Shown in pieces: positions 14,210-43,776 of a DNA stretch of 64,000 nucleotides (within the stretch, counting starts at the first letter, position 1; the number at the start of each line of letters is the position of its first letter). Location of the stretch: positions 142,207-206,206 of the forward strand of contig CAVYZH010000005.1 in NCBI GenBank assembly GCA_963772975.1, written 5' to 3'. The DNA is from an uncultured Actinomycetes bacterium. Lineage in GTDB: Bacteria; Actinomycetota; Thermoleophilia; Gaiellales; Gaiellaceae. The notes under the pieces were generated by a model that worked only from the letters and a program-made list of their open reading frames with translations, was not told the DNA's origin and ran no database searches. A program made the translations under genes and the position numbers.

Positions 14210-15382
14210 ATGTCGACGCCCGGCGGAGAGAAGCCCTACCGCGTCTACCGGGGCGGGCGTCAGAAGGGCCGGGTGCCGACCGTCGGACGGCCCGAGAAGT
14301 CGCCGCCGCGGACGAAGGCCGAGCGCGACGGACGCAGCAACTACCGCGGGCCGGGTGCGAAGACAGCGGCCCGCCGCCCGCGCCAGATTCGCTGGGGCCG
14401 CGAGCTGACGATCGCGCTGGTGGTGATCGTCGCCTTCTTCCTCGCCTGGAGCGTGATCGGCTACCTCGTCTTCCGCAGCGGCGTCTCGGAGGCGAACAAG
14501 CGGCTGCCGCAGAACGCGCGGCGTGCGCTGGCGCCCGACCAGGGCAGCCTGCTCTCGACCCCGACCGCGATTCTGCTGCTCGGCACCGATCACTCACTCG
14601 CGGCCGCGCGGGCCGGCGACCGGCACTCCGACTCGATCACGCTGCTGCGCACCGACCCGCCGCACCACCGGCTCTACTACCTCTCGATCCCGCGCGACCT
14701 GCGCGTCGAGATCCCCGGCTACGGCGGCGCGAAGATCAACACGGCGTTCCAGGTCGGCGGCCCGCGCCTCGCCGCGCGCACGGTCTCGGCCTACACCGAC
14801 ATCCCGATCAACCACATCGTCGTCGTCAACTTCGCCGAGTTCAAAGACCTGATCGACGCGGTCGGCGGGATCGACATCGTCGTCCCGGAGAAGATCCAGT
14901 CGAAGTTCGACTGCCCGTACAAGACCGAGGCCCGCTGCGCGCGCTGGCCCGGCTGGCGGTTCTTCCCGGGCAAGCAGCACATGAGCGGCCAGCGGGCGCT
15001 GATCTATTCGCGCGTGCGCAAGAACGCGCTCAACCCGGCCGAGAGCGACATCACCCGCGGCGAGCGCAACCAGCAGGTGCTGCAGGCGCTGATGAGCAAG
15101 CTCGCCAGCTTCTCGACGTTCATGCGGCTGCCCTTCGACGGCAAAGACCTGACGAAGCCGCTCGCGACCGACCTTTCTGCGAACGACTTCGCCGGGCTCG
15201 GCTGGGCGAAGTTCCGCGCCGGTCGCACGCTCCACTGCCGCCTCGGCGGCACCTCGACCGGCGGCGACATCACCCCGAGCGAGGACAACGCGAAGGTGAT
15301 CCTGATGGTGCTCGGCAAGTCGGCGCCACAGCCGCCCGCGCCGTCCGGCGACACGTATCCGCCGGGCTGCCTGAGCCGCTAG
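14210..15382 (+). CDS. LytR-CpsA-Psr (LCP) family cell-envelope phosphotransferase
   Basis: ATG 14210 inside track ORF 13574..15382: basic N-terminus, one TM, then LLLGTDHS...DSITLLRTDP...YLSIPRDLRVEIPGYGGAKINTAF...IDIVVP. Confidence 0.85.
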   Translation: MSTPGGEKPYRVYRGGRQKGRVPTVGRPEKSPPRTKAERDGRSNYRGPGAKTAARRPRQIRWGRELTIALVVIVAFFLAWSVIGYLVFRSGVSEANKRLPQNARRALAPDQGSLLSTPTAILLLGTDHSLAAARAGDRHSDSITLLRTDPPHHRLYYLSIPRDLRVEIPGYGGAKINTAFQVGGPRLAARTVSAYTDIPINHIVVVNFAEFKDLIDAVGGIDIVVPEKIQSKFDCPYKTEARCARWPGWRFFPGKQHMSGQRALIYSRVRKNALNPAESDITRGERNQQVLQALMSKLASFSTFMRLPFDGKDLTKPLATDLSANDFAGLGWAKFRAGRTLHCRLGGTSTGGDITPSEDNAKVILMVLGKSAPQPPAPSGDTYPPGCLSR

Positions 15383-15651
15383 GCCTCCGCGGCCTTCTTC
15401 TTCTCTTCCTTGGGCTTGGCGGGCTCGGACGACGGGGAGTCGCCGTCCTTGGAGTCCGGCTTCTTGCCCGAACCGCGGCCGTAGTCGGTCGTGTAGAAGC
15501 CCGAGCCCTTGAAGTGCACGGCGACCGGGTAGAGCACGCGCTCGAGCGGCCCCTCGCCACAGACCTCACATTTTTCGGGCGCCGCGTCGCCGATCTTCTG
15601 GAACAACTCGAACACATGCCCGTTCGGGCACCGGTACTCGTAGATCGGCAT
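15379..15651 (-). CDS. FmdB-family zinc-ribbon protein
   Basis: ATG 15651: MPIYEYRCPNGHVFELFQKIGDAAPEKCEVCGEGPLERVLYPVAVHFKGSGFYTTDY plus a Lys/Glu-rich tail. The first Cys knuckle is degenerate. Confidence 0.8.
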   Translation of the reverse strand: MPIYEYRCPNGHVFELFQKIGDAAPEKCEVCGEGPLERVLYPVAVHFKGSGFYTTDYGRGSGKKPDSKDGDSPSSEPAKPKEEKKKAAEA

Positions 15652-15655
15652 GGAT

Positions 15656-15862
15656 CTAAGGATAGTTGGGCGACTGGCTGCGGCCGCTCTCGCGCTCCAG
15701 GGTCTCTCGGTAGCAGGGTGCGTCCTCGAAGGCGGCAAGGCCCGGCTGGACCGAGCGACGCGGACGGCGTCTGCGGCGCGCGGCGGCGAGCGCGGCTGAG
15801 GCGCCGAGCAGCCCGCCGATCACGAACGAGCGCAGGCGGGCCGACTGTGACTCCCGATCCAC
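15656..15862 (-). CDS. Possible small membrane-anchored protein (68 aa)
   Basis: GTG 15862: VDRESQSARLRSFVIGGLLGASAALAAARRRRRPRR.... The only support is that it fills the gap; weak. Confidence 0.3.
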   Translation of the reverse strand: MDRESQSARLRSFVIGGLLGASAALAAARRRRRPRRSVQPGLAAFEDAPCYRETLERESGRSQSPNYP

Positions 15863-15885
15863 GCGGCGATTGTACGGTTGCCCCC

Positions 15886-16707
15886 GTGATCTGCACTCTC
15901 GGCGATGTGCTCCTCGACGTGATCGTGCGGACCTCCGAGCCGCTCGCGCCCGGCGCCGACAGCCCGGTCGAGACCCGGCTCGCCACCGGCGGCCAGGCGG
16001 CGAACGTGGCGGCGTGGGTCGCCGAACTGGGCGAGGGCGCCCGTTGCGTGGCGAAGCAGGCCGACGACGCGGCCGGCGCGCTCGCGCGAACGCTGCTCGA
16101 GCGCCACGGGGTCGAGCTCGTCGGCCCGGTCGTCGCCGGAACGACCGGGACGGTGGTCGCGCTCGTCTCGCCGGACGGCGAGCGCTCGATGGCAACCGAC
16201 CGCGGCGTCTCCGTCGAGTTGCGCGCGGACGAGCTCGAGCCTGCGTGGTTCGAGGGCTGCTCGTGGCTGCATCTCTCCGGCTACGCGCTGCTGGCCGAGC
16301 CGATCGCGGAAGCGGGACTGATCGCGGCGCGGCTGGCCCGGGCGCGCGAGGCACGAGTGGCGGTCGACCTCTCCTCGTGGAGCGCGATCCGCGCCTACGG
16401 GCCGAAGCGCTTCCGCGCGAACCTGGACGCGGCCGCGCCCGACGTCGTCTTTGCCAACGAGCCAGAGTGGGAGATGGTCGGCGGCGCCTACGCGCTGGCC
16501 GAGACGGCGGTGGTCAAGCGCGGCTCGCGCGGCGTCGAGGTTCGCTCTCCCGAGGGCATCGAGGAGTTCCCGCCGCTCGACGCGGAGGTCGTGGACACGA
16601 CGGGCGCCGGCGACGCGCTGGCGGCCGGCTTCCTCGTAGGCGGGATCGAGCTCGGTCTGGAGGCGGCTGCCCGCTGCGTCGGCCAGCTCGGGGCGGTGCC
16701 CGTGTGA
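15886..16707 (+). CDS. psuK: PfkB-family carbohydrate kinase, probable pseudouridine kinase
   Basis: GTG 15886: VICTLGDVLLDVIV...GGQAANVA...DTTGAGDALAAGF. Translationally coupled (GTGTGA) to psuG. Confidence 0.75.
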   Translation: MICTLGDVLLDVIVRTSEPLAPGADSPVETRLATGGQAANVAAWVAELGEGARCVAKQADDAAGALARTLLERHGVELVGPVVAGTTGTVVALVSPDGERSMATDRGVSVELRADELEPAWFEGCSWLHLSGYALLAEPIAEAGLIAARLARAREARVAVDLSSWSAIRAYGPKRFRANLDAAAPDVVFANEPEWEMVGGAYALAETAVVKRGSRGVEVRSPEGIEEFPPLDAEVVDTTGAGDALAAGFLVGGIELGLEAAARCVGQLGAVPV

Positions 16708-31690: not shown

Positions 31691-32443
31691 GTGAGCGCTC
31701 TCGTCTCAGCAGGCCGCCGGGTTCTGCCACGTGGTTGGGCAGATTTCGGCCTTCAACTCGCGATCTGGTTCGGGTTCCTCGGCCTGTACCAAGTGGCGCG
31801 TGGGATCGCAGACCGCAACCCGCCGAAAGCTTTCGACAACGGCCTGCAAGTGATCGGGATCGAGCGGCACGTTCACGGGCTGATCGAGCTGAGCTTTCAG
31901 CGGGCGATCGACGGCTCCCACCTGCTGGCGACGCTCGCCTCGTGGACGTACTGGAACTCCGAGTTCACCGTGCTCGGGCTGGCGCTGCTCTGGGTCTACC
32001 TGCGGCGCAACGAGGCGTTCATCCGCTTCCGCAACTGGATCCTGCTGGCGAACGCCTTCGGGCTGATCGGCTACGTGCTGCTGCCGACCGCGCCGCCGCG
32101 GATGTTCCCGGACTTCGGCTTCAACGACACGCTCTCGAACTTCGGCCAGCTCAATCACGGGAGCGGCCTCGTCGAGTTCGCGGCCAACCCGTACGCAGCG
32201 ATGCCGAGCCTGCACGCGGCCGACGCTCTGATCGTCGGGATCGTGCTCGCCTCGGTCTGCCGCAGCCGCTTCGCGAAGGTGCTCTGGCTGCTCTGGCCGG
32301 GCTGGGTCTGGTTCAGCGTGATGGCCACGGGCAACCACTTCTGGCTCGACATCGTCGCCGGCATCCTCGTGGCCGTGATCGCGGGCCTGATCGTCTACCG
32401 CAGCCCGCTGCGACGCCGGCGCACCGCGACCGCGAACGCGTGA
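31691..32443 (+). CDS. PAP2-superfamily membrane protein (Aur1/IPC-synthase-like PAP2_C type)
   Basis: Polytopic, with LLPTAPPR, AAMPSLHAADA (PSGH-like) and TGNHFWLDIVAG (HxxxD). GTGA overlap with the next gene. Confidence 0.8.
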   Translation: MSALVSAGRRVLPRGWADFGLQLAIWFGFLGLYQVARGIADRNPPKAFDNGLQVIGIERHVHGLIELSFQRAIDGSHLLATLASWTYWNSEFTVLGLALLWVYLRRNEAFIRFRNWILLANAFGLIGYVLLPTAPPRMFPDFGFNDTLSNFGQLNHGSGLVEFAANPYAAMPSLHAADALIVGIVLASVCRSRFAKVLWLLWPGWVWFSVMATGNHFWLDIVAGILVAVIAGLIVYRSPLRRRRTATANA

Positions 32444-33075
32444 CCCGCGCCGAGACCCTCGCCTGGGTCAAACGCGGATATACCGACGGCACTCGCAGGC
32501 TCGCCGCGCGGTGGATCGGTGGCCTCGCGCGCACGCGCGTGACGCCAAACGCGCTGACGGCGGCCGGGATCACCCTTTGCGGCGCGTCGGCCGTGATCAT
32601 CTGGTTCGCCTACCACCGCCCGTGGCTCCTCTACTGGCTCGCGGCGGTGGTTTTCGTGGTCGGCTCGGTGCTCGACATCCTCGACGGGGCGCTCGCGCGC
32701 TACGGCGGCAAGGCGACGCCGTTCGGCGCGTTCGTCGACTCGATCTCCGACCGCGTCAGCGAGGGCTTCGTGCTGACCGCCGTCGCGCTCGTCTTCGCAC
32801 GCGAGGGGAACGACATCGCGGTCGGCTTCACCATCGCCGCGATGGCCGGGTCGTTCCTCGTCTCGTACGCGCGGGCCAAAGCCGAGCTGCTCGGCCTAAA
32901 GGGTGACGTCGGCCTCGGCAGCCGAGCCGAGCGCGTCGTGGTGATCACCGGCGGCCTGGTCTTCGCACCGTGGGGCGGGCTGCAGTGGGCGATCTACTTC
33001 CTCGCCGTGGCGGCCTGGGTCACCGTGCTGCAGCGCGTCTTCAGCGTGCGCTCGCAGCTCCGCCGAAGCAAGTAA
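32440..33075 (+). CDS. CDP-alcohol phosphatidyltransferase, phosphatidylinositol-phosphate synthase type
   Basis: GTG 32440 inside track ORF 31735..33075. Signature DILDGALARYGGKATPFGAFVDSISDRVSE (D-x2-DG-x2-AR...G-x3-D-x3-D). The PIP-synthase call is supported by context next to ino1. Confidence 0.85.
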   Translation: MTRAETLAWVKRGYTDGTRRLAARWIGGLARTRVTPNALTAAGITLCGASAVIIWFAYHRPWLLYWLAAVVFVVGSVLDILDGALARYGGKATPFGAFVDSISDRVSEGFVLTAVALVFAREGNDIAVGFTIAAMAGSFLVSYARAKAELLGLKGDVGLGSRAERVVVITGGLVFAPWGGLQWAIYFLAVAAWVTVLQRVFSVRSQLRRSK

Positions 33076-33083
33076 CCCCACGA

Positions 33084-33108
33084 GGCGCCGACTTGGCGGC
33101 GCCGTTTA
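33084..33108 (+). terminator. Possible intrinsic terminator after the phosphatidyltransferase gene
   Basis: GGCGCCG (33084-33090), loop acttgg, CGGCGCC (33097-33103), followed by GTTTAG. The T-tract is weak. Confidence 0.35.
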
Positions 33109-33176
33109 GAGGCCGCGCGGCCGTCTAACGCACCTCCTTGGATTAGAGATGGTGGGACCTCCGCTACGAGATCGCC

Positions 33177-33202
33177 TATACTGCTAGCACTCCTGTGCTA
33201 GC
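33177..33202 (+). promoter_or_regulatory. -10-like TATACT followed by a perfect 8-4-8 palindrome GCTAGCAC-TCCT-GTGCTAGC; candidate operator of the RHH module
   Basis: TATACT at 33177-33182. Palindrome arms at 33183-33190 and 33195-33202; the right arm begins with the GTG that opens ORF 33195..34643. Local GC dips upstream. Confidence 0.4.
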
Positions 33203-34643
33203 TCCAACGCGCAAGCATGTGCTCGTCCGGATGCCCGGTGAGCTCAAGCGGCTCCTCTCGGTCGAGGTCCGGCGCACCGGCCGCAGCCTCAACGACGTCG
33301 CCGTCGGCATCCTCGCCTCCCGCTTCGCCGTTTCGTTCAACCCGAGCGGCCGCGCGGGCAAGGACCCCGGCAAGAGCGGCTCCGTGCTTCTGCGGATGCC
33401 TCCGGAGCTGAAGGACAAGCTGGCCGCGCGCGCGGCGCAGCGCAAACGCAACGTCAACGACCTGATCGTCGAGACGCTCTCGGAGCGGCTCGAAGGAAAG
33501 GAACCCATGGCTTCGACCAACGGCAAGGCGCGGCGCGGAGAGAGCAAGGTCCGCGTCGCGATCATCGGCGTCGGCAACTGCGCGAGCTCCCTCGTGCAGG
33601 GCGTCGAGTACTACAAGGACGCCAACCCGGACGACTTCGTCCCGGGCCTGATGCATGTCGACCTCGGCGGTTACCACATCAGCGACATCGAGTTCACGGC
33701 CGCCTTCGACGTCACCACGGACAAGGTCGGCAAGGACCTCTCCGAGGCGATCTGGGCACATCCGAACAACACGATCAAGTTCTCGGACGTCCCCAAGAGC
33801 GGCATCACCGTCTCGCGCGGGATGACACACGACGGGCTCGGCAAGTACCTCTCCGAGATCGTCGAGAAGGCCCCGGGCGAGACCGACGACGTGGTCGGGA
33901 TCCTCAAGGACACGAAGACCGACGTCGTGATCAACTACCTCCCGGTCGGCTCAGAGGAGGCGACCAAGTGGTACACGGAGCAGATCCTCTCGGCCGGCTG
34001 CGCGATGGTGAACTGCATGCCCGTCTTCATCGCGCGCGAGAACTACTGGCAGCGGCGCTTCGAGGAGGCCGGCGTGCCGATCATCGGCGACGACATCAAG
34101 TCGCAGGTCGGCGCCACCATCACCCACCGCGTCCTGATGAGCATCTTCCGCGACCGCGGCGTGCGGGTCGACCGCACCTTCCAGCTCAACTTCGGCGGCA
34201 ACTCCGACTTCATGAACATGCTCGAGCGTGACCGCCTCGAGTCGAAGAAGATCTCGAAGACGAACTCGATCAAGTCGACGCTTCCCTACGCGCTCGAGGA
34301 GAAGAACATCCACGTCGGCCCGTCCGACTACGTGCCGTGGCTCGAGGACCGGAAGTGGGCCTACATCCGGCTCGAGGGCACCTCGTTCGGCGACGTGCCG
34401 CTGAACGCGGAGCTGAAGATCGAGGTCTGGGACTCGCCGAACTCGGCCGGCGTCGTGATCGACGCGGTGCGGCTGGCGAAGCTCGCCCTGAACGAGGGCG
34501 TCTCGGGCACGCTCGGCGCGCCGAGCTCCTACCTGATGAAGTCGCCGCCGGTCCAGCACCCCGACGACGAGGCGCGCGACCTGACGGAGGAGTTCATCCG
34601 CAAGCACGCGCGGAAGCCGGCCAAGGTGGCAGCGAAGGCGTAG
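33195..34643 (+). CDS. ino1: myo-Inositol-1-phosphate synthase with an in-frame N-terminal tandem ribbon-helix-helix (Arc/CopG/MetJ-like) extension
   Basis: Residues 1-104 hold two RHH-like units ([37 protein letters not shown]; [37 protein letters not shown]). From M105 (ATG 33507, preceded by GAAGGAAAGGAA) the sequence is typical MIPS: [23 protein letters not shown]...NYLPVGSE...[12 protein letters not shown]...FGGNSDF.... No stop separates the two parts. Confidence 0.85.
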
Positions 34644-34674
34644 GCACACGCGGGCCGGGCTAGACTCGCCCGAC

Positions 34675-36402
34675 ATGGCCCTGCGTGTCTGTCTGGTCAC
34701 GCCGTTCGCCTGGTCGAGGCCGCACGACGTCAACGAACACGTGGCCGGGGTCGCGCACGAGCTGCGCGAGCTCGGCCACGACGTCACCGTGCTCGCGCCC
34801 TCGACCCGAGCGGCCGATCTGATCGCCGGCCGCCGCTCGCTGCTCGACGGCGGGCCGCACGAGCTGATCGCGCTCGGCCCCGCCGTGCCGGTCTCGCGGC
34901 GCAGCCGGATCGGTGTTCCTGTCGGCGTGCGGGCGAACCTGTCGCTCGCCCTGGCGCGCGGCGAGTACGACGTCGTGCACGGCTTCGAGCCGGGCCTCCC
35001 GAGCCTCTCCTACCTGGCGCTGCGCGACTCGCGCGCCTTCGAGGTTGCGACCTTCCTCTCGAGGGAGCGGCTCGGCTACCCGCCCGGCAAAGCCCAGCGC
35101 GAGCGGCTGCTGGGCCGGATCGACGCGCTCGTCGCCACCTCGGAGGCGACCGCCGCGGCCGCGGCCGAGCGCCTGCCCGGCGACTACCGGGTGATCACGG
35201 CAGGCGTCGACCTCGAGCGCTTCAAGCCCGCGCACAAGCACCGAGTCGTCGTGCTCGAGTGGCGGCCGGGCGAACGGGCGCTGACCCGAGCGGTCGTGCG
35301 GGCGCTCACGTCGCTGCCCGATTGGGAGCTCGTCTTCCTCCGCACGAAACCGCTTGCCGGCCGGCCCTCGTTGCCGAGGGCGCTGCGTGGTCGCGCGCGT
35401 GTGCGCACGCTCCGCGACGGAGCCGCGAGGGCGCCGCTGTTGAACGAGGCCTCGATCTTCGTCCCCGCCCTCGACGGGCTCGACCGCGTCTCGCTCGAGG
35501 CGGCCGCGGCCGGAGCGGCGATCGTCTCGCCGCCGGGCCTGCGCGAGCAGCACGAGCTGGCGGCCGCCGAGCTGCTGCGCCTCGCCGAGGATGGCGATTA
35601 CCGCGAGCGCGAGAGCAAACGCGCCCGCGAGGCCGCCGAGCCGCAGAGCTTCGCTGCCGCCGCCGGCGAGCTGGACGAGCTCTACCGCGGCCTGGCCTCG
35701 AGGCGCCGCTCGCGGAGCGCCGAGCCGCTCGGCGACCGCGACTGGATCGTCGCCGACCTGCACATGCACACCTCCTGGTCCCACGACTGCCAGATCCCGG
35801 TCGAGGAGCTGCTCGACCACGCCGAGGCGGAGGCCCTTGGCGCGATCGCCGTCACCGACCACAACGTCTTCGGCGGCGCCCGCGAGGCGGTCGAGCTGGC
35901 CCGCGGCCGCGACCTCGTCGTGATCCCGGGCGAAGAGGTGAAGACCGCCGACCAGGGCGAGGTGATCGGGCTCTTTCTTTCCGAGGAGATCCCGCGCGGC
36001 CTCTCGTTCGGCGAGACCGTGGATGCGATCCGCGCCCAGGGCGGGATCGTCTACCTCCCCCACCCCTTCGACCGCCTGCACGCGATCCCGGAGCCCGCGA
36101 CCCTGCACCGCCACCTCGCCAAGGTCGACGTGCTCGAGGTCTACAACGCCCGCTTGCTGTTCGAGGCCTACAACGACGAGGCGCTGCGCTTCGCGCGCAA
36201 GTACGACCTGACGATGGGCGCCGGCTCCGACGCGCACGTGCTCCAGGGTGTCGGCACCGGCGCGGTGCGGATGCGGGCCTTCGACGGGCCCGAGGAGTTC
36301 CTCGTCAGCCTGCGCAGCGGGCAGGTTCTGCGCCGCCCGCGCTCACTGCTCTACCTGCAGTCGCTGAAGTGGGCGGCGCAGGCCAAGGAAAGGGTCCGCT
36401 AG
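34675..36402 (+). CDS. GT4 glycosyltransferase (PimA-like) fused to a C-terminal PHP-family phosphoesterase domain
   Basis: N-terminal ~340 aa: MALRVCLVTPFAWSRPHDVNEHVAGVAHELRELGHDVTVLAP...HGFEP...LEAAAAGAAIV. C-terminal ~220 aa: DLHMHTSWSHDC...VTDHN...PGEEV...YLPHPFD...GSDAH (PHP His/Asp motifs). Confidence 0.85.
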   Translation: MALRVCLVTPFAWSRPHDVNEHVAGVAHELRELGHDVTVLAPSTRAADLIAGRRSLLDGGPHELIALGPAVPVSRRSRIGVPVGVRANLSLALARGEYDVVHGFEPGLPSLSYLALRDSRAFEVATFLSRERLGYPPGKAQRERLLGRIDALVATSEATAAAAAERLPGDYRVITAGVDLERFKPAHKHRVVVLEWRPGERALTRAVVRALTSLPDWELVFLRTKPLAGRPSLPRALRGRARVRTLRDGAARAPLLNEASIFVPALDGLDRVSLEAAAAGAAIVSPPGLREQHELAAAELLRLAEDGDYRERESKRAREAAEPQSFAAAAGELDELYRGLASRRRSRSAEPLGDRDWIVADLHMHTSWSHDCQIPVEELLDHAEAEALGAIAVTDHNVFGGAREAVELARGRDLVVIPGEEVKTADQGEVIGLFLSEEIPRGLSFGETVDAIRAQGGIVYLPHPFDRLHAIPEPATLHRHLAKVDVLEVYNARLLFEAYNDEALRFARKYDLTMGAGSDAHVLQGVGTGAVRMRAFDGPEEFLVSLRSGQVLRRPRSLLYLQSLKWAAQAKERVR

Positions 36403-36423: not shown

Positions 36424-37008
36424 GTGGCTGCCGTGACGGACGAGATTTTCGAGAAGTACCTGCAAAAGGCAATCGCCGAGACGAACGAGCTCGGTGACGA
36501 GATCGCGCGCGCCGCGGGCGAGGGCCAGGTCCCGGTGCTGGGCTCCGGGCACCCGCTCGCGGATGTCTTCCTGCTCAAGTACTCGCCGCAGCCGGCGGAG
36601 GTGCAGGAGGGCGTCGCCTTCTACGGCCGCTCGGGCCAGGCGCTGCTCAAGTCGCTGCAGCGGCTGAACGTCGACCCGCTGGCGATCTACGGCACGAACT
36701 GCTTCAAGCTGGCCGGCGGCGACGAGAACCAGGCACGCGCCTGGTTGATCCGCGAGCTGCACATCGTCCAGCCTAAGCTCGTGGTCGTGATGGGCGAGGC
36801 CGCGCTCGATTTCCTGAACGCGATCGAGTTCCCGCTTGCGGACAAGCTCGAGCCGACCCTCGGCGAGCTGCAGCGCTTCACACCCACAATCCAGGCGCTC
36901 TACGTGCCCGACATCGACGAGTCGCTGGACGAGGCGCCCGCGAAGACGCGCTTCTGGAACGCCTTCAAGGCACTGGGCCCATGGTGGGCCGAGCTGCCGC
37001 CGTACTGA
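36424..37008 (+). CDS. Uracil-DNA glycosylase superfamily protein (atypical, no Fe-S cysteines)
   Basis: VLGSGHPLADVFLLKYSPQPAEVQEGVAFYGRSGQALLKSL...KLVVVMGEAALDFL resembles family-4/5 UDG topology, but the GE(A/G)PG motif is replaced by LKYSPQ. Confidence 0.65.
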   Translation: MAAVTDEIFEKYLQKAIAETNELGDEIARAAGEGQVPVLGSGHPLADVFLLKYSPQPAEVQEGVAFYGRSGQALLKSLQRLNVDPLAIYGTNCFKLAGGDENQARAWLIRELHIVQPKLVVVMGEAALDFLNAIEFPLADKLEPTLGELQRFTPTIQALYVPDIDESLDEAPAKTRFWNAFKALGPWWAELPPY

Positions 37009-37739
37009 GCCCGCGCCGCGCCGCCGCGTTCGTCGCGCTCGCGGTCGTCGTCGGCATCTACTACGGCACGCACGAGTCGTGGTTCAGCCTCTCGCTCTGG
37101 GGGTCGATCGCGTGGCTCAGCTTCCTCGTGATCCCGGCCGTGTTCGGGTTCGTCTGGCTCGCGCTGCCGGCCTGGGCGCTGCCGCTGCGCCGGCTGCTGA
37201 TCACCGCGATCGGGTTCGGCGCGCTTGCGGTCGTGCTGCAGGCGACGGGCGCATCGCCGGTCGCGAACTTCGCGAAGCTCGGCGCGATGACGTTCGCAGG
37301 GTGGTGCTTCCTGCGCTTCTTCGAGGAGCTGAGCTGGGTCGTGCTCGTCGCCTTGATCGTGCCCTTCGTCGACTCGTACTCGGTCTGGCGCGGCCCGACG
37401 AACACGATCGTGAACAAGCACGTCGAGGTCTTCGACGCCCTCTCGTTCACGTTCCCGGTCCCCGGCTTCGACGGCGGCGCCAAGCTCGGCCTGCCGGACC
37501 TGCTCTTCTTCGCGCTCTTCCTCGGGGCGGCCGCCCGCTGGCGGTTGCGGCCCGGCTGGACCTGGCTCTGCCTGGTGGCCTCGATCGGCGGGACGATCTC
37601 GTTGGCAACCTGGCTCGAGGTGGACGGGCTGCCCGCCCTGCCGCTGCTCTCCGTCGGCTTCCTGCTGCCGAACGCCGACCTGCTCTGGCGTGAGGTCAGG
37701 GGTCGAAGCGCCAGAGATCCCCGTCGAAGTCAGACGTGA
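36981..37739 (+). CDS. Polytopic membrane protein with presenilin/signal-peptide-peptidase-like (A22) motifs
   Basis: 8-9 TM segments. LIVPFVDSYSVWRGPT compares with PS1 ISVYDLVAVLCPKGPL. GAKLGLPDLLFFALFLGAA compares with PS1 GVKLGLGDFIFYSVLVGKA. DGLPALPLLSVGF compares with PS1 KALPALPISITFG. The comparison is from memory of human presenilin-1. Confidence 0.6.
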   Translation: MVGRAAAVLSPRRAAAFVALAVVVGIYYGTHESWFSLSLWGSIAWLSFLVIPAVFGFVWLALPAWALPLRRLLITAIGFGALAVVLQATGASPVANFAKLGAMTFAGWCFLRFFEELSWVVLVALIVPFVDSYSVWRGPTNTIVNKHVEVFDALSFTFPVPGFDGGAKLGLPDLLFFALFLGAAARWRLRPGWTWLCLVASIGGTISLATWLEVDGLPALPLLSVGFLLPNADLLWREVRGRSARDPRRSQT

Positions 37740-40428: not shown

Positions 40429-41829
40429 CTATGAGAACGGGGGATGTAGCGGGAGGATCAGAGGCGGCCGCGGCTTCTGGGTGAAGTCGAAGTCCGAGAC
40501 GAGGTTGCTGAGCTGCGGCACCTCCTCGCGCACCGTCGGCCGCGGGTCCGGCCGCCCGTCGTTCGCCGGGTCGAGCCGCGACGAGCGCAGGAAGTCGTCC
40601 TCGATGAACTTCGCGTAGGCGTCGAAGCTCAGCACCTGGTGGTCGACGTAGCCGCGCCGGGCGTACGGCGAGATCACGAGCCCCGGCACGCGCAGGCCGT
40701 AGCCGTTGACGTCGACCTTCGGCGGCACGACGTGGTCGTAGAAGCCGCCCCAGTCGTCCCAGGCGAGGAAGATCGCAGTCGAGCTCCAGTCCGGGCTGCG
40801 CATGACCGCGTTGACGACGCTGGTGACGTAGCTCTGGCCGGCGGTGACGAGACTCGGCGGGTGCTCGCTGACCCGGTTGCTCGGGATCACCCACGAGACC
40901 GCCGGCAGCCGGCCGCGCCTGGCCATTCCGAACAGCTGCTTGATCGGGACGATGTCCCGGAGCTCGTGGTCGGCTTTGACCGTGGTGAACCACGGCAGCG
41001 GGTTCCAGATCCCGGGCGTGCCGGCGCTCTGCCTCGGCGGCGTGCAGACCATCCCGTCGTCGTCGCAGTCGGGCTGGGCGCCCTTGACGACGAAGTAGCG
41101 CCAGGAGACGTGGTGCTTGTGCAGCAGGTAGGTGAGATCGGTCCACGCGTAGTCCGGCTTGCGGCCGGTCGGGTTCTGCCGCTCGTGCGGCGGCGCGAGT
41201 GGGTTCTCGACCGCGTTGACGCAGCTCGACGCTGCCTGCGTGCGGCAGCGGGCCGACCACTCGGAGACCATGAACAGGTGGGCGGGCAGGCTCCAGGAGG
41301 TGTCCGGCTGGAACATGTGGTCCTGGAGCACGAAGCTCCGCGCGTAAGCCCAGTAGTTCGGGATCTCGCGCCGGTCGTGGTAGCCCATCACGTCCGGATG
41401 CGCTGCGCCGAACGAGCAGAGCGGCGCGTCCGGGCTGACCGAGCAGCCGGTCTCGAGCCCGCGCCTGGCCTCGCGCACGAACCCGTCCATCTTGCCGTCG
41501 TTGACGTCGCGGACCGCGTCGAGATGCTCGTGCGGCCCACCACTGTTGCGGTCGCGCAAGTCGTGGAACGGGTAGAGGCAGATCCCGGTGCGCGGGTCCG
41601 GCGAGCAGACGGTGAAATGGCCGCTGCGTCGCGGCAGGCCGTCCGCTCCTGGATACGTGCCGAAGTAGGAGTCGAAGGAACGGTTCTCCTGCATGATCAC
41701 GACGACGTGGCGGATCTTGTGGATCCCCGCGACGACGTGGGCGTGCGGCTCGTCCTCGTGCGAGAAGAAGGCCACTCCCACGACCAGCGCCACCGAAAGG
41801 GCGAACGCAAGCGGAAGTCGGCCCGGCAC
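40429..41829 (-). CDS. Phosphoesterase-family protein (phospholipase C / AcpA-type acid phosphatase)
   Basis: [26 protein letters not shown]...[12 protein letters not shown]...WGGFYDHV...[15 protein letters not shown]. Confidence 0.9.
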
Positions 41830-42297: not shown

Positions 42298-43776
42298 ATG
42301 CCGAGCAGCCCGGAGATCGAGGCCTACAGCGCCGAAGCCGACCGCTTCATCGCCGAGCTCGACGAGGAGTACTACCAGCACTACGCGGGCCTGAAGGACA
42401 AGCTCGAGCTCGAAGACATCTACGAGCGGCACGCGAAGCTGATGGAGCTCGAGAACGTGCAGTCGGTCGGCGCGGCGGTAAACGGCGACCGCCGCATCCG
42501 CGAGCTCTGGGAGTTCGGCTGCGAGGGCTACCTGGGCAAATTCACCCGCGAGCACGCCGAGAAGCTCGCCGAGCTGGAGGCCGAGCTCGAGGTGACCGTC
42601 GACGGCGAGACGCTGCCCTTCCGGATGATCCGCCCGGAGATGGCCAACGAGGCCGACCGCGGGAAGCGCGAGCAGCTCGACCGCGCGATGTGGGAGGCGA
42701 CCGAGGAGCATCTGAACCCGGTCTACCTGGACGGCGTCGAAATCGTCCGCCGCCAACTGCCCTCGCTCGGCGTCTCGACTTACGTCGAGCTCTATGAGCG
42801 CTTCGGCTTCCGGCTCGAGGAGCTGGCGGCGCAATGCGGAGCGTTCCTCGCCGACACCGAGCAGCTCTACGAAGAGCGCATGGACCGCGCCTCGCGGGCA
42901 CTGCTCGGGATCTCGCTCGACGACCTCGCGCGCTGGGACGTGCAGCGCCTGCTGCGCTCGCCGCAGTGGGACGAGGGCTTCCCCGGCGACAAGATGGTGC
43001 CGGCGCTGCGGGCGACGCTGGCCGACCTCGGGATCGACCTCGACAGCCAGCAGAACATCACGCTCGACATCGAGCAGCGACCGCAGAAGACGCCGCGCGC
43101 CTTCTGCTCGCCGATCGAGGTCCCGGACAAGGTGATGCTCGTGATCCAGCCGATCGGCGGCGCCGACGATTGGCGCGCCTTCTTCCACGAGGCCGGGCAC
43201 GCCGAGCACTTCGGCAACACCTCGCGCGACCTGGCGATGGAGGAGAAGCGGCTCGGCGACACGGCGGTCACCGAGGGCTGGGCGATGCTGATGCAGCACC
43301 TGACGGACGAGCCCGGCTGGCTCTCGCGCAAGCTCGACTTCCCGCGCCCGGACGAGTATGCGGCCGAGGGGATGCTCTGGCTGCTCTTCTTCGTCCGCCG
43401 CTACTCGGCCAAGCTGCTCTACGAGCTCGAGTTCCACTCCGCGGACGACGTCGGCGGGATGCCGAAGCGCTACGCGGAGCTGCTCGGCGACGCGCTCAAG
43501 TTCGAGATCAGCGAGGCCAACTACCTCGCGGACATCGACTCCGGCTTCTACGTCACCGCCTACCTGCGCTCGTGGGCGTTCGAGAGCCAGCTGCGCGACC
43601 ACCTGCGCGAGCGCTTCGGCAGCGACTGGTTCGCCCAGCGCGAGGCGGGCTCGCTGCTGCGCGAGCTCTGGGGCTTGGGCCAGAAGCCGACCGCCGACGA
43701 GCTGCTGAAGGACGTCACCGGCGCGGAGATCCAGATGTCCGCCGTCGGCGACCGCGTGCGCGAGCACCTCTCGTAG
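42298..43776 (+). CDS. Zinc metallopeptidase-like protein (HEAGH; M3/oligoendopeptidase-like)
   Basis: 492 aa with FFHEAGHAEHF (HExxH). Overall helical and acidic, like M3-type peptidases. Family assignment not verified. Confidence 0.65.
   Translation: MPSSPEIEAYSAEADRFIAELDEEYYQHYAGLKDKLELEDIYERHAKLMELENVQSVGAAVNGDRRIRELWEFGCEGYLGKFTREHAEKLAELEAELEVTVDGETLPFRMIRPEMANEADRGKREQLDRAMWEATEEHLNPVYLDGVEIVRRQLPSLGVSTYVELYERFGFRLEELAAQCGAFLADTEQLYEERMDRASRALLGISLDDLARWDVQRLLRSPQWDEGFPGDKMVPALRATLADLGIDLDSQQNITLDIEQRPQKTPRAFCSPIEVPDKVMLVIQPIGGADDWRAFFHEAGHAEHFGNTSRDLAMEEKRLGDTAVTEGWAMLMQHLTDEPGWLSRKLDFPRPDEYAAEGMLWLLFFVRRYSAKLLYELEFHSADDVGGMPKRYAELLGDALKFEISEANYLADIDSGFYVTAYLRSWAFESQLRDHLRERFGSDWFAQREAGSLLRELWGLGQKPTADELLKDVTGAEIQMSAVGDRVREHLS

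Follow-up and report, generated by a model that had tools for sequence, protein, structure and literature searches.

The DNA analysed here, which we call the window, is a stretch of 64,000 nucleotides from contig CAVYZH010000005.1 of an uncultured bacterium of the family Gaiellaceae (class Thermoleophilia). It contains a block of genes with a putative role in the synthesis of phosphatidylinositol (PI), including a fusion protein whose PHP domain is a candidate for the phosphatase that acts on phosphatidylinositol phosphate (PIP). The window has a G+C content of about 70% and a core-chromosome setting, with prsA, glmU, ksgA, tatD, metG, rsmI, the gene of an LCP protein, clpB–dnaJ–grpE–dnaK, moaA, a tRNA-U5 methyltransferase gene and yjbQ. 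Four genes, all on the + strand, encode a PAP2_3 membrane protein, a PIP synthase (PIPS), a myo-inositol-3-phosphate synthase (MIPS) that begins with ribbon-helix-helix (RHH) repeats, and the fusion of a PimA-like glycosyltransferase (GT) module with the PHP domain. A preliminary description of this DNA had presented them as four consecutive same-strand genes, and their positions and motifs agree with the translations and with the domain matches in Pfam and NCBIfam (PF14378 for PAP2_3, PF01066 for the CDP-alcohol transferase, PF13439 for Glyco_transf_4 and PF02811 for PHP). All four are indeed present, whereas the unit that is conserved among genomes comprises six genes, with a UDG-like and a presenilin-like gene added at the 3' end. 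The G+C content at the third codon position is 0.90–0.95 for three of the four genes, namely those listed by the composition scan. The features of the block are the following.

31691..32443, + strand: PAP2_3 (Aur1-type PAP2) membrane protein with six predicted transmembrane (TM) segments (PF14378)
32440..33075, + strand: PIPS, a CDP-alcohol phosphatidyltransferase (PF01066, PDB relatives, motif)
33084..33103, + strand: GC-rich inverted repeat GGCGCCG N6 CGGCGCC, a possible transcript end (inverted-repeat scan)
33183..33202, + strand: palindrome GCTAGCAC-N4-GTGCTAGC, a candidate operator for the RHH domains, overlapping the MIPS start
33195..33524, + strand: two tandem RHH (Arc/HicB-like) repeats at the N-terminus of MIPS (Pfam HicB, Arc and FitA-like models)
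33525..34643, + strand: catalytic part of MIPS (TIGR03450, PF01658)
34675..35700, + strand: PimA-like GT-B (GT4-like) module, residues 1–342 of the fusion (PF13439, phmmer, Foldseek)
35737..36402, + strand: PHP (TrpH/CehA-type) trinuclear-metal phosphoesterase domain, residues 355–575 of the fusion (PF02811, PF13263)
36424..37008, + strand: UDG-superfamily protein without the family-4 catalytic motifs (PF03167)
36981..37739, + strand: presenilin-like (GxGD-type) polytopic membrane protein, last gene of the block (family profile against the PDB)

The second gene encodes a CDP-alcohol phosphatidyltransferase (PF01066, E=1.9e-16) of the PIP synthase type, as had been proposed. Its closest solved relatives in the PDB are PgsA1 of Mycobacterium tuberculosis (6h53) and the Renibacterium PIP synthase RsPIPS (5d92), with E-values of about 3e-19. 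The top NCBIfam models are those for archaetidylinositol-phosphate synthase and PIP synthase, with scores below the equivalog cutoffs (NF040950, 134.6 versus 180 bits; NF045883, 118 versus 170 bits). The translation reads DILDGALAR...GAFVDSISD and thus fits DxxDGxxAR...GxxxDxxxD, the motif that defines class I CDP-alcohol phosphatidyltransferases (PMC6506517). The adjacency of the MIPS gene is suggestive of an enzyme that uses inositol phosphate and not inositol. The catalytic part of MIPS matches TIGR03450 (E=1.2e-164, residues 119–468, model positions 1–355) with a score of 547.6 bits, which is below the equivalog cutoff of 638, and PF01658 (E=1.9e-35, 121.7 bits).

The fusion protein has a length of 575 amino acids, with Pfam domains Glyco_transf_4 at residues 19–182, PHP at residues 361–427 and PHP_C at residues 499–551. 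For the GT-like half, PF13439 was matched with an E-value of 3e-16, and the only model for its C-terminal part, PF13692, stayed below the threshold (16.9 versus 27 bits). From 13 divergent sequences, AlphaFold2 gave a confident model (pLDDT 89.2, pTM 0.85) with a GT-B fold of two Rossmann domains. PimA was the only GT4 structure found by phmmer in the PDB (E=1.3e-12) and also the top match in Foldseek (E=8.6e-15; TM-score normalised to the target, TMt, 0.69; 23–24% identity), where other GT4 enzymes followed, including MshA at rank 4. Thus, the nearest relative of the GT-like half is PimA in both searches and not a glycosyltransferase outside PI metabolism.

In PimA, the pyrophosphate is held by Gly16, Arg196 and Lys202, the ribose by Glu282 and the mannose by Glu274; His118 is likewise essential. 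ManT, MshA and WbnH require the corresponding GT4 signature residues (PMC9883506, PMC4506291). We read these positions in the window fusion with two aligners and by comparison with the clade of canonical fusions. Only one of the six signature residues is kept, Glu282, which corresponds to E275. Gly16 is replaced by D18, Arg196 by W196, Lys202 by P198/A202 with an arginine nearby and His118 by L128, and the loop of Glu274 has two to three residues fewer, its acidic position being variable (D/E/A) even among the Gaiellales. The Solirubrobacterales-like clade has lost G16, K202, E274 and E282 (→R) and kept H118. The P0156 clade retains G16, H118, RKG and E282. Of 14 sequences translated from the sister clade P0326 (L097–L112), 12 have PGG, ATFH, RKG and GNESFGxxxxEA. 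The fusion of a PimA relative to a PHP domain, with its PHP motifs, therefore stands as first described, whereas a functional GT4 does not: judged by these residues, the fused GT4 of the window is not a working PimA. Likewise, the suggested channelling from PIP via PI to glycosyl-PI finds no support in the window protein with its five lost signature residues and is plausible only in the sister clade, where the signature is intact.

Because the sister clade keeps all GT4 signature residues, the ancestor of the fusion was probably a bifunctional PimA–PHP enzyme, and the fusions of L097–L114 (P0324/P0326) are probably true bifunctional PimA–phosphatase enzymes. We read the distribution of residues as a loss of sugar transfer in several lineages, including that of the window, with the function of the PHP domain under strong constraint. 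Residues common to the Gaiellales, Solirubrobacterales-like and P0156 clades lie almost all in the N-terminal Rossmann half (P10, W13, N20, G34-H35, R53, D99, H102, E105-P106, P109-S110, R117, F127, K139, R148, D150 and G177), and the donor-binding half has only R201, A276, A278, G280, Y337 and R343-R344 in common. In GT-B enzymes, the N-terminal Rossmann half binds the acceptor. As this acceptor-side half is the conserved one, the remaining GT-like half may have a docking or scaffold role.

The PHP half matches PF02811 (39.3 versus 26.4 bits) and PF13263 (PHP_C, 56.6 versus 21.3 bits), and it misses the model for CehA/McbA marginally (NF038032, 77.4 bits versus a cutoff of 80). All metal motifs that had been recognized in the translation (HxH, D, DH, E, H and DxH) are invariant, with H363, H365, D371, H396, E421, H463, D519 and H521 as ligands, and they align with the metal ligands of TrpH-type enzymes. 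In total, about 50 columns of the PHP half are invariant, including DLHMHT, TDHN, GEEVKT, PHPFD and GSDAH. Among 13 divergent fusions, the mean pairwise identity is 55.5% for the PHP half versus 29% for the GT-like half. Profile matches of the PHP half are 3e0f, RNase AM (7ug9), TM0559 and Cv1693; with Foldseek, TM0559 (TMt 0.72) and the PHP domain of RNase AM were found. The fusion protein is predicted to have neither a TM segment nor a signal sequence. A search of the literature found no relevant work that joins a PHP domain with a glycosyltransferase and phosphatidylinositol.

Stand-alone PHP orthologues beside PIPS were considered and rejected, as most of the short matches are fragments of fusions. 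P0266 is a genuine stand-alone PHP open reading frame (ORF) of 226 amino acids on a contig of 843 bp, and a metagenome scan with P0266 gave no match. In locus L092 of the P0187 clade, a stand-alone PHP+PHP_C protein of 229 amino acids (15327–16016) is encoded beside yjbQ in addition to the fusion; it is possibly a paralogue.

The conservation of the block was surveyed by a scan of species-representative genomes, which included 80 Gaiellales loci. Of the Gaiellales loci, 45 extend more than 6.5 kb upstream of the fusion, and in these we found MIPS (44 loci), PIPS (43) and PAP2_3 (42) on that side; where enough downstream sequence was available, the UDG-like gene and the gene with seven TM segments (7-TM gene) followed in 73/73 loci. 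At least six deep clades, whose flanking genes differ, retain PIPS–MIPS–fusion, with a fusion identity of 33–48%. Divergent full-length fusions of 36–48% identity were followed to their contigs. For instance, PAP2_3–PIPS–MIPS–fusion–UDG-like is found in L085–L089, and a Conexibacter metagenome-assembled genome (MAG; L094) has the same order with an inserted GNAT gene. L090 and L092 contain PIPS–MIPS–fusion–UDG-like–7-TM without PAP2_3. The P0156 clade (L082/83) has PIPS–MIPS–hypothetical–fusion and lacks both PAP2_3 and the UDG-like gene; thus, the constant partners of PIPS and MIPS in this clade are the fusion genes. The P0326 clade (L097–L114) contains the complete six-gene block at 33–38% fusion identity, and its fusion gene starts at a median of 161 nt after MIPS. 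The PHP domain accompanies PIPS and MIPS in every clade but one. The source names of the carriers all belong to the Thermoleophilia (Gaiellaceae, Conexibacter, Solirubrobacteraceae and Capillimicrobium). We thus find the adjacency that had been noted in the window to be conserved class-wide: deep clades of the Thermoleophilia share the six-gene block PAP2_3–PIPS–MIPS–fusion–UDG-like–presenilin-like, and the adjacency of PIPS, MIPS, PAP2_3 and the fusion is not due to chance.

PI and PI mannosides (PIM) are essential envelope lipids of actinobacteria. The pathway to PI was reportedly revised in 2010 by Morii et al., and since then the enzyme that turns PIP into PI has been missing. The PIP phosphatase was called 'yet-unidentified' in 2019 (PMC6506517) and has been identified only in Bacteroides, where it is the PgpA-like BT_1525 (2022; PMC9246714). 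A preprint of July 2026 still describes the mycobacterial enzyme as 'long-sought'; its candidate is the α/β-hydrolase EphE, which is proposed without biochemical proof and predicted to form a complex with PimA (10.64898/2026.07.15.738315). These three publications confirm that an enzyme for this step is missing in actinobacteria, as the preliminary description had stated. We propose that the gene block is a phosphatidylinositol biosynthesis module of the class Thermoleophilia in which the PHP domain acts as PIP phosphatase, a proposal that we consider evenly poised between right and wrong. Two phosphoesterase-type modules had been seen as placed for this step. Of these, the PHP domain appears to be the better candidate and PAP2_3 the weaker one, because the PHP domain has invariant metal motifs, is predicted to be cytoplasmic like the active site of PIPS and follows PIPS and MIPS even in clades without PAP2_3. 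The cavity of PIP synthase opens to the cytoplasm (PMC6506517).

The proposed pathway would proceed as follows. By homology, MIPS makes inositol-3-phosphate, and PIPS is expected to join it to CDP-diacylglycerol to form PI-phosphate in the cytoplasmic leaflet. The PHP domain of the fusion would then release PI by removing the 3-phosphate. The PimA-derived half would have ceased to transfer a sugar in this Gaiellaceae lineage and may serve as a scaffold or as a module that docks the head group or the membrane. The ancestral PimA–PHP enzyme may have run the whole sequence PIP→PI→PIM1, and this form would still be present in the sister clade. PAP2_3 probably acts later and in the outer leaflet, either as an Aur1-like transferase with PI as donor or as a lipid-phosphate phosphatase. 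Solirubrobacter, a member of the same class, is reported to contain PI and PIM according to thin-layer chromatography (PMC10722151), which is in line with a PI pathway in the class and implies a separate working PimA where the fused copy has decayed. Among the annotated ORFs of the 64-kb window, there is no second canonical PimA and no PatA, and we found no lipid data for Gaiella in the literature. Taken together, the PHP domain would be the PIP 3-phosphatase of the Thermoleophilia and a third non-homologous solution for this step, the fusion would record an ancient coupling to PimA, the GT half of the Gaiellales and Solirubrobacterales would be a docking pseudoenzyme, and PAP2_3 would be an Aur1 analogue with a non-ceramide acceptor in the envelope. 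This joint reading is tentative and, as a whole, somewhat doubtful.

Several observations weigh against the proposed pathway. The characterised PHP relatives closest to the fusion act on nucleotides or RNA (the pAp phosphatase Cv1693 and RNase AM), not on lipids. The basic amphipathic helix of PimA (R77, K78, K80 and K81) has a role in membrane binding, and none of the fusion clades shows an enrichment of K/R in the segment aligned with it. The loss of the GT4 signature was called from alignments in which PimA is about 23% identical, and the comparison with the canonical fusions corroborates it. Since every carrier comes from a single class in which macro-synteny is shared (DnaK, tRNA-U5 methyltransferase and YjbQ nearby), part of the conservation reflects inheritance and not selection. 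In many Gaiellales, 1–5 kb of unrelated genes lie between MIPS and the fusion, and in L081 the fusion and the UDG-like gene stand alone, with neither PIPS nor MIPS within 8 kb. Furthermore, the tightest neighbour of the fusion is the UDG-like gene and not MIPS (in 100/101 loci, counting duplicates, that have over 1.6 kb of downstream sequence). Lastly, the gene that is translationally coupled to PIPS by a GTGA overlap, across orders, is PAP2_3, and a PAP2 enzyme with an outward site can still act on lipids made inside; PgpB of Escherichia coli, for example, dephosphorylates phosphatidylglycerol phosphate (PGP).

The insertions between MIPS and the fusion, the isolated pair in L081 and the tight linkage to the UDG-like gene would be explained if the fusion, the UDG-like and the presenilin-like genes formed a separate module, involved in nucleotide or nucleic-acid metabolism or another process, that lies beside the inositol genes by inherited synteny; the PIP phosphatase would then be encoded elsewhere. 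The nucleotide bisphosphate phosphatases and the RNase among the nearest characterised PHP relatives are in line with such a module. The UDG-like gene (product matching PF03167, E=1.8e-9) is located directly 3' of the fusion in nearly all clades (73/73, 13/14 and 14/14) and overlaps it in L081 and L088. However, its family lacks both catalytic motifs of family-4 UDG: KYSPQ stands where Thermus UDG has GEGPG, VPDID takes the place of HPS, and the family alignment, with 63% column identity across clades, contains no HPS motif. Four cysteines are kept in the other clades and one in the copy of the window, in which three Fe-S cysteines are lost. In addition, the N-terminal half of the fusion resembles PimA and not a nucleic-acid enzyme, PIPS–MIPS–x–fusion is present in the P0156 clade although a UDG-like gene is lacking there, and the canonical clade places the fusion close behind MIPS, at the median of 161 nt. 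We therefore regard a separate module as quite improbable.

In most clades, the conserved block ends with a gene whose copy in the window encodes a protein of 252 amino acids with seven hydrophobic segments and no Pfam match above threshold. Its family profile matches human presenilin-2 in the PDB (E=4.2e-7), with YD/GP, GLGD (here GLPD) and PALP aligned, and the Pfam model Presenilin appears below threshold in 6/9 members of the family. D131, D173 and PALP are invariant. Going by these motifs, the product of 36981–37739 is a presenilin-like GxGD protease homologue.

The alternative candidate for the PIP phosphatase, PAP2_3, is a PAP2/Aur1-like protein (PF14378, 142.9 bits versus a cutoff of 27), as had been recognized from its motifs. 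In an alignment of 12 divergent homologues, down to 38% identity, PSLH and NHFWLD are invariant, with P172, S173, H175, H216 and D220. The coupling to PIPS was also borne out, since the GTG start of PIPS at 32440 overlaps the TGA stop of PAP2_3 at 32441–32443, and overlaps recur in other orders (4 nt in L088, 1 nt in L094). PAP2_3 adjoins PIPS in the Gaiellales, in a Conexibacter MAG and in the clade with canonical GT. It might thus itself be the PIP phosphatase, similar to PgpB, which acts on PGP, or to Rv3807c, which acts on decaprenylphosphoryl-5-phosphoribose (DPPR). The fusion would then act downstream: in the canonical clades, it would glycosylate PI and dephosphorylate another intermediate, and in the window it would have a regulatory or scaffold role. 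The conserved coupling and the presence of PAP2_3 in most clades fit this explanation, PAP2 chemistry suits lipid phosphomonoesters, and in the PDB the family profile matches LpxE, which is a lipid A 1-phosphatase, and Aur1 similarly well (4e-4 and 8e-4).

PAP2 enzymes typically have an active site that faces outward. From hydropathy and charge bias, we predict the same for PAP2_3, with 15 K+R in inside versus 6 in outside loops and with PTAPPR, PSLH and NHFWLD in predicted outside loops, whereas PIP is made at the cytoplasmic face. PAP2_3 is furthermore missing in three fusion-bearing clades that keep PIPS–MIPS–fusion (P0156, P0167 and P0187), and it has no canonical C1 motif of the phosphatases (KxxxxxxRP), in place of which an invariant PTAPPR stands. 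Its similarity to curated families is only to phosphoinositol transferases: the sole match is the PI-dihydroceramide (PI-DHC) synthase model NF052609 (3e-13, 49.9 bits versus a cutoff of 480), and Aur1 is matched weakly (E=0.016 with the single sequence, 8e-4 with the family profile). Thus, the case for PAP2_3 as PIP phosphatase retains the coupling to PIPS and is weakened by the outward catalytic loops and the three clades without the gene; we consider this explanation unlikely. An activity as Aur1-like phosphoinositol transferase or as outer-leaflet phosphatase fits PAP2_3 better. The transferase alternative, which had been mentioned as resembling inositol phosphorylceramide (IPC) synthase, is at least as likely as PIP phosphatase, and since the family profile scores LpxE and Aur1 equally, hydrolase and transferase are not separable by sequence. 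As a transferase, PAP2_3 would use a different acceptor than in Bacteroides, as to our knowledge sphingolipid synthesis has not been reported in Thermoleophilia. No relevant literature was found on PF14378/PAP2_3.

The adjacency of MIPS would also be compatible with a fusion that acts on soluble inositol phosphate, either as an inositol monophosphatase or by an MshA/MshA2-like glycosylation of inositol phosphate that is followed by dephosphorylation. Such a two-step logic of a GT4 enzyme plus a phosphatase is known from sucrose-phosphate synthase and sucrose-phosphate phosphatase, and from MshA followed by the unidentified MshA2. MshA is indeed among the top structural matches of the fusion (rank 4 in Foldseek). 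Against this stand PimA as the only GT4 found by phmmer and the first by Foldseek, the loss of the donor-binding signature in this lineage, so that no glycosylation is expected, and a gene set that always includes PIP synthase, which consumes inositol phosphate directly. We therefore rejected the MshA/MshA2-like or compatible-solute reading as the main explanation, with PimA as the top match of both searches and the donor site decayed, and consider an action on soluble inositol phosphate very unlikely.

The MIPS gene of the window, which had been described before as RHH-MIPS, differs from a plain MIPS by two N-terminal RHH repeats; they match the HicB, Arc and FitA-like models of Pfam (residues 61–99), and the repeated sequence pattern of the pair is visible in the translation. 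The RHH pair is found on MIPS in 20/97 loci (including L003, L006, L008, L011, L013, L023 and L027). Between PIPS and MIPS lies a gap of 119 nt, which holds a GC hairpin (GGCGCCG N6 CGGCGCC, starting 9 nt after the PIPS stop) and the operator-like palindrome. This perfect palindrome is preceded by TATACT and overlaps the MIPS start. Because of the gap with its hairpin and palindrome and the TATACT box, PAP2_3–PIPS and MIPS appear to be separate transcripts, and the four genes are probably not transcribed as one; the MIPS mRNA may be leaderless. A promoter scan of 31.5–37.9 kb detected no sigma-70-type sites, and in a terminator scan of the same region terminator-like sites were no commoner than in shuffled sequence, with no U-tract terminator called. 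Upstream of 16 RHH-MIPS genes, there are 3.5 copies of the motif GCTA[GT]CA per locus, compared to a background of 0.05 per 600 nt; the 45 loci in which MIPS has no RHH pair contain 0 copies. The RHH-bearing MIPS thus probably autoregulates its own gene via the GCTAGCA repeats, in the subset of genomes that carry the RHH pair, apparently as an enzyme and repressor of its gene at once.

Some further genes were observed around the block. A phosphoesterase of the phospholipase C/acid phosphatase family (PF04185, E=2e-63) is encoded at 40429–41829 on the − strand, 4 kb downstream of the block; many Gaiellales loci have homologues close to the cluster, and in L018 a weak homologue is encoded between MIPS and the fusion. 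An ORF of 492 amino acids at 42298–43776 (+ strand) has a strong coding signal, with a third-position G+C content of 0.97, and no Pfam match, and it adjoins yjbQ. Unannotated ORFs of 499 and 505 amino acids occur near the tRNA methyltransferase gene in L092 (there also beside yjbQ) and L094. Directly upstream of PAP2_3, a protein of 525–557 amino acids without Pfam match is encoded in L086 (3175–4848), L088 (3592–5169) and L094 (3998–5632), a position that is occupied by moaA in the window.

Bacterial PI synthesis via PIP is already known, and the new element would be the candidate phosphatase fusion. The cluster offers a concrete and easily assayed candidate for the PIP phosphatase with textbook metallophosphatase chemistry, joined to a relative of PimA, for which the phosphatase product PI is the substrate. 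The fusion thereby supports the idea that dephosphorylation and the first mannosylation are physically coupled. Furthermore, the family forms a natural series from intact PimA–PHP to forms with a decayed GT, which can separate catalytic from scaffolding roles of the GT-B domain. As the fusion was found here only in Thermoleophilia, it does not directly name the mycobacterial enzyme.

When comparing the block to known systems, the closest counterpart in mycobacteria is the pgsA1–patA–pimA operon (Rv2612c–Rv2610c). Both encode a PIP-synthase-type transferase, with PgsA1 as the best solved relative of the window protein, both are supplied with inositol phosphate by an Ino1-type MIPS, both have a PimA-related protein encoded nearby, and in both the phosphatase step is not assigned. 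In contrast to the operon, the window has MIPS inside the cluster and neither a PatA acyltransferase nor a Nudix gene, its PimA-like protein is fused to PHP and lacks 5/6 signature residues, and PAP2_3, UDG-like and presenilin-like genes are added. The cluster BT_1522–BT_1526 of Bacteroides thetaiotaomicron (PMC9246714) shares the layout of a PAP2-type PI-DHC synthase, PIPS, a dedicated PIP phosphatase and MIPS, and the curated-family match of the window PAP2_3 is the BT_1522-type model NF052609. This parallel speaks for PAP2_3 as an enzyme that uses PI further downstream and for the PHP domain as a non-orthologous replacement of the PgpA-like enzyme. The phosphatase of Bacteroides is PgpA-like whereas the candidate of the window is a PHP domain, no PgpA domain was found in any of the six block genes with Pfam or NCBIfam, and PAP2_3 is not an orthologue of BT_1522 given its NF052609 score far below the cutoff.

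PimA itself (2GEJ, 4N9W) shares the GT-B fold and is the best sequence and structure match of the fusion, with N-terminal motifs in common at P8, G32-H33, D89, H92, E95-P96, P99-S100 and F117 (PimA numbering). The fusion differs from it by G16→D, H118→L, R196→W, K202→P/A and the shortened E274 loop without a conserved acid; the basic amphipathic helix of PimA is also not conserved in it, and its C-terminal Pfam model is below threshold. For the PHP half, TrpH/YciV-type proteins (the 3',5'-bisphosphonucleotide phosphatase Cv1693, 2YB1; RNase AM, 7UG9; TM0559, 2ANU) share the fold and the full set of metal ligands. These enzymes remove a phosphomonoester from a substrate with a second phosphate, which may be seen as formally similar to the PIP head group. 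Unlike them, the PHP domain of the window is fused to a PimA-like module, has a PHP_C extension and is encoded with lipid-synthesis genes. Lastly, EphE (Rv3670) has been proposed for the same step and for the same coupling to PimA on the membrane's cytoplasmic side (10.64898/2026.07.15.738315). EphE, an α/β-hydrolase whose active site is atypical, is encoded by a separate gene and is not homologous to the PHP domain, whereas the partner of the PimA-like module in the window is a canonical metallophosphoesterase that is covalently joined to it. By analogy, the PHP–PimA fusion may serve as a 'Rosetta stone' for the coupling of PimA and PIP phosphatase that is predicted in mycobacteria.

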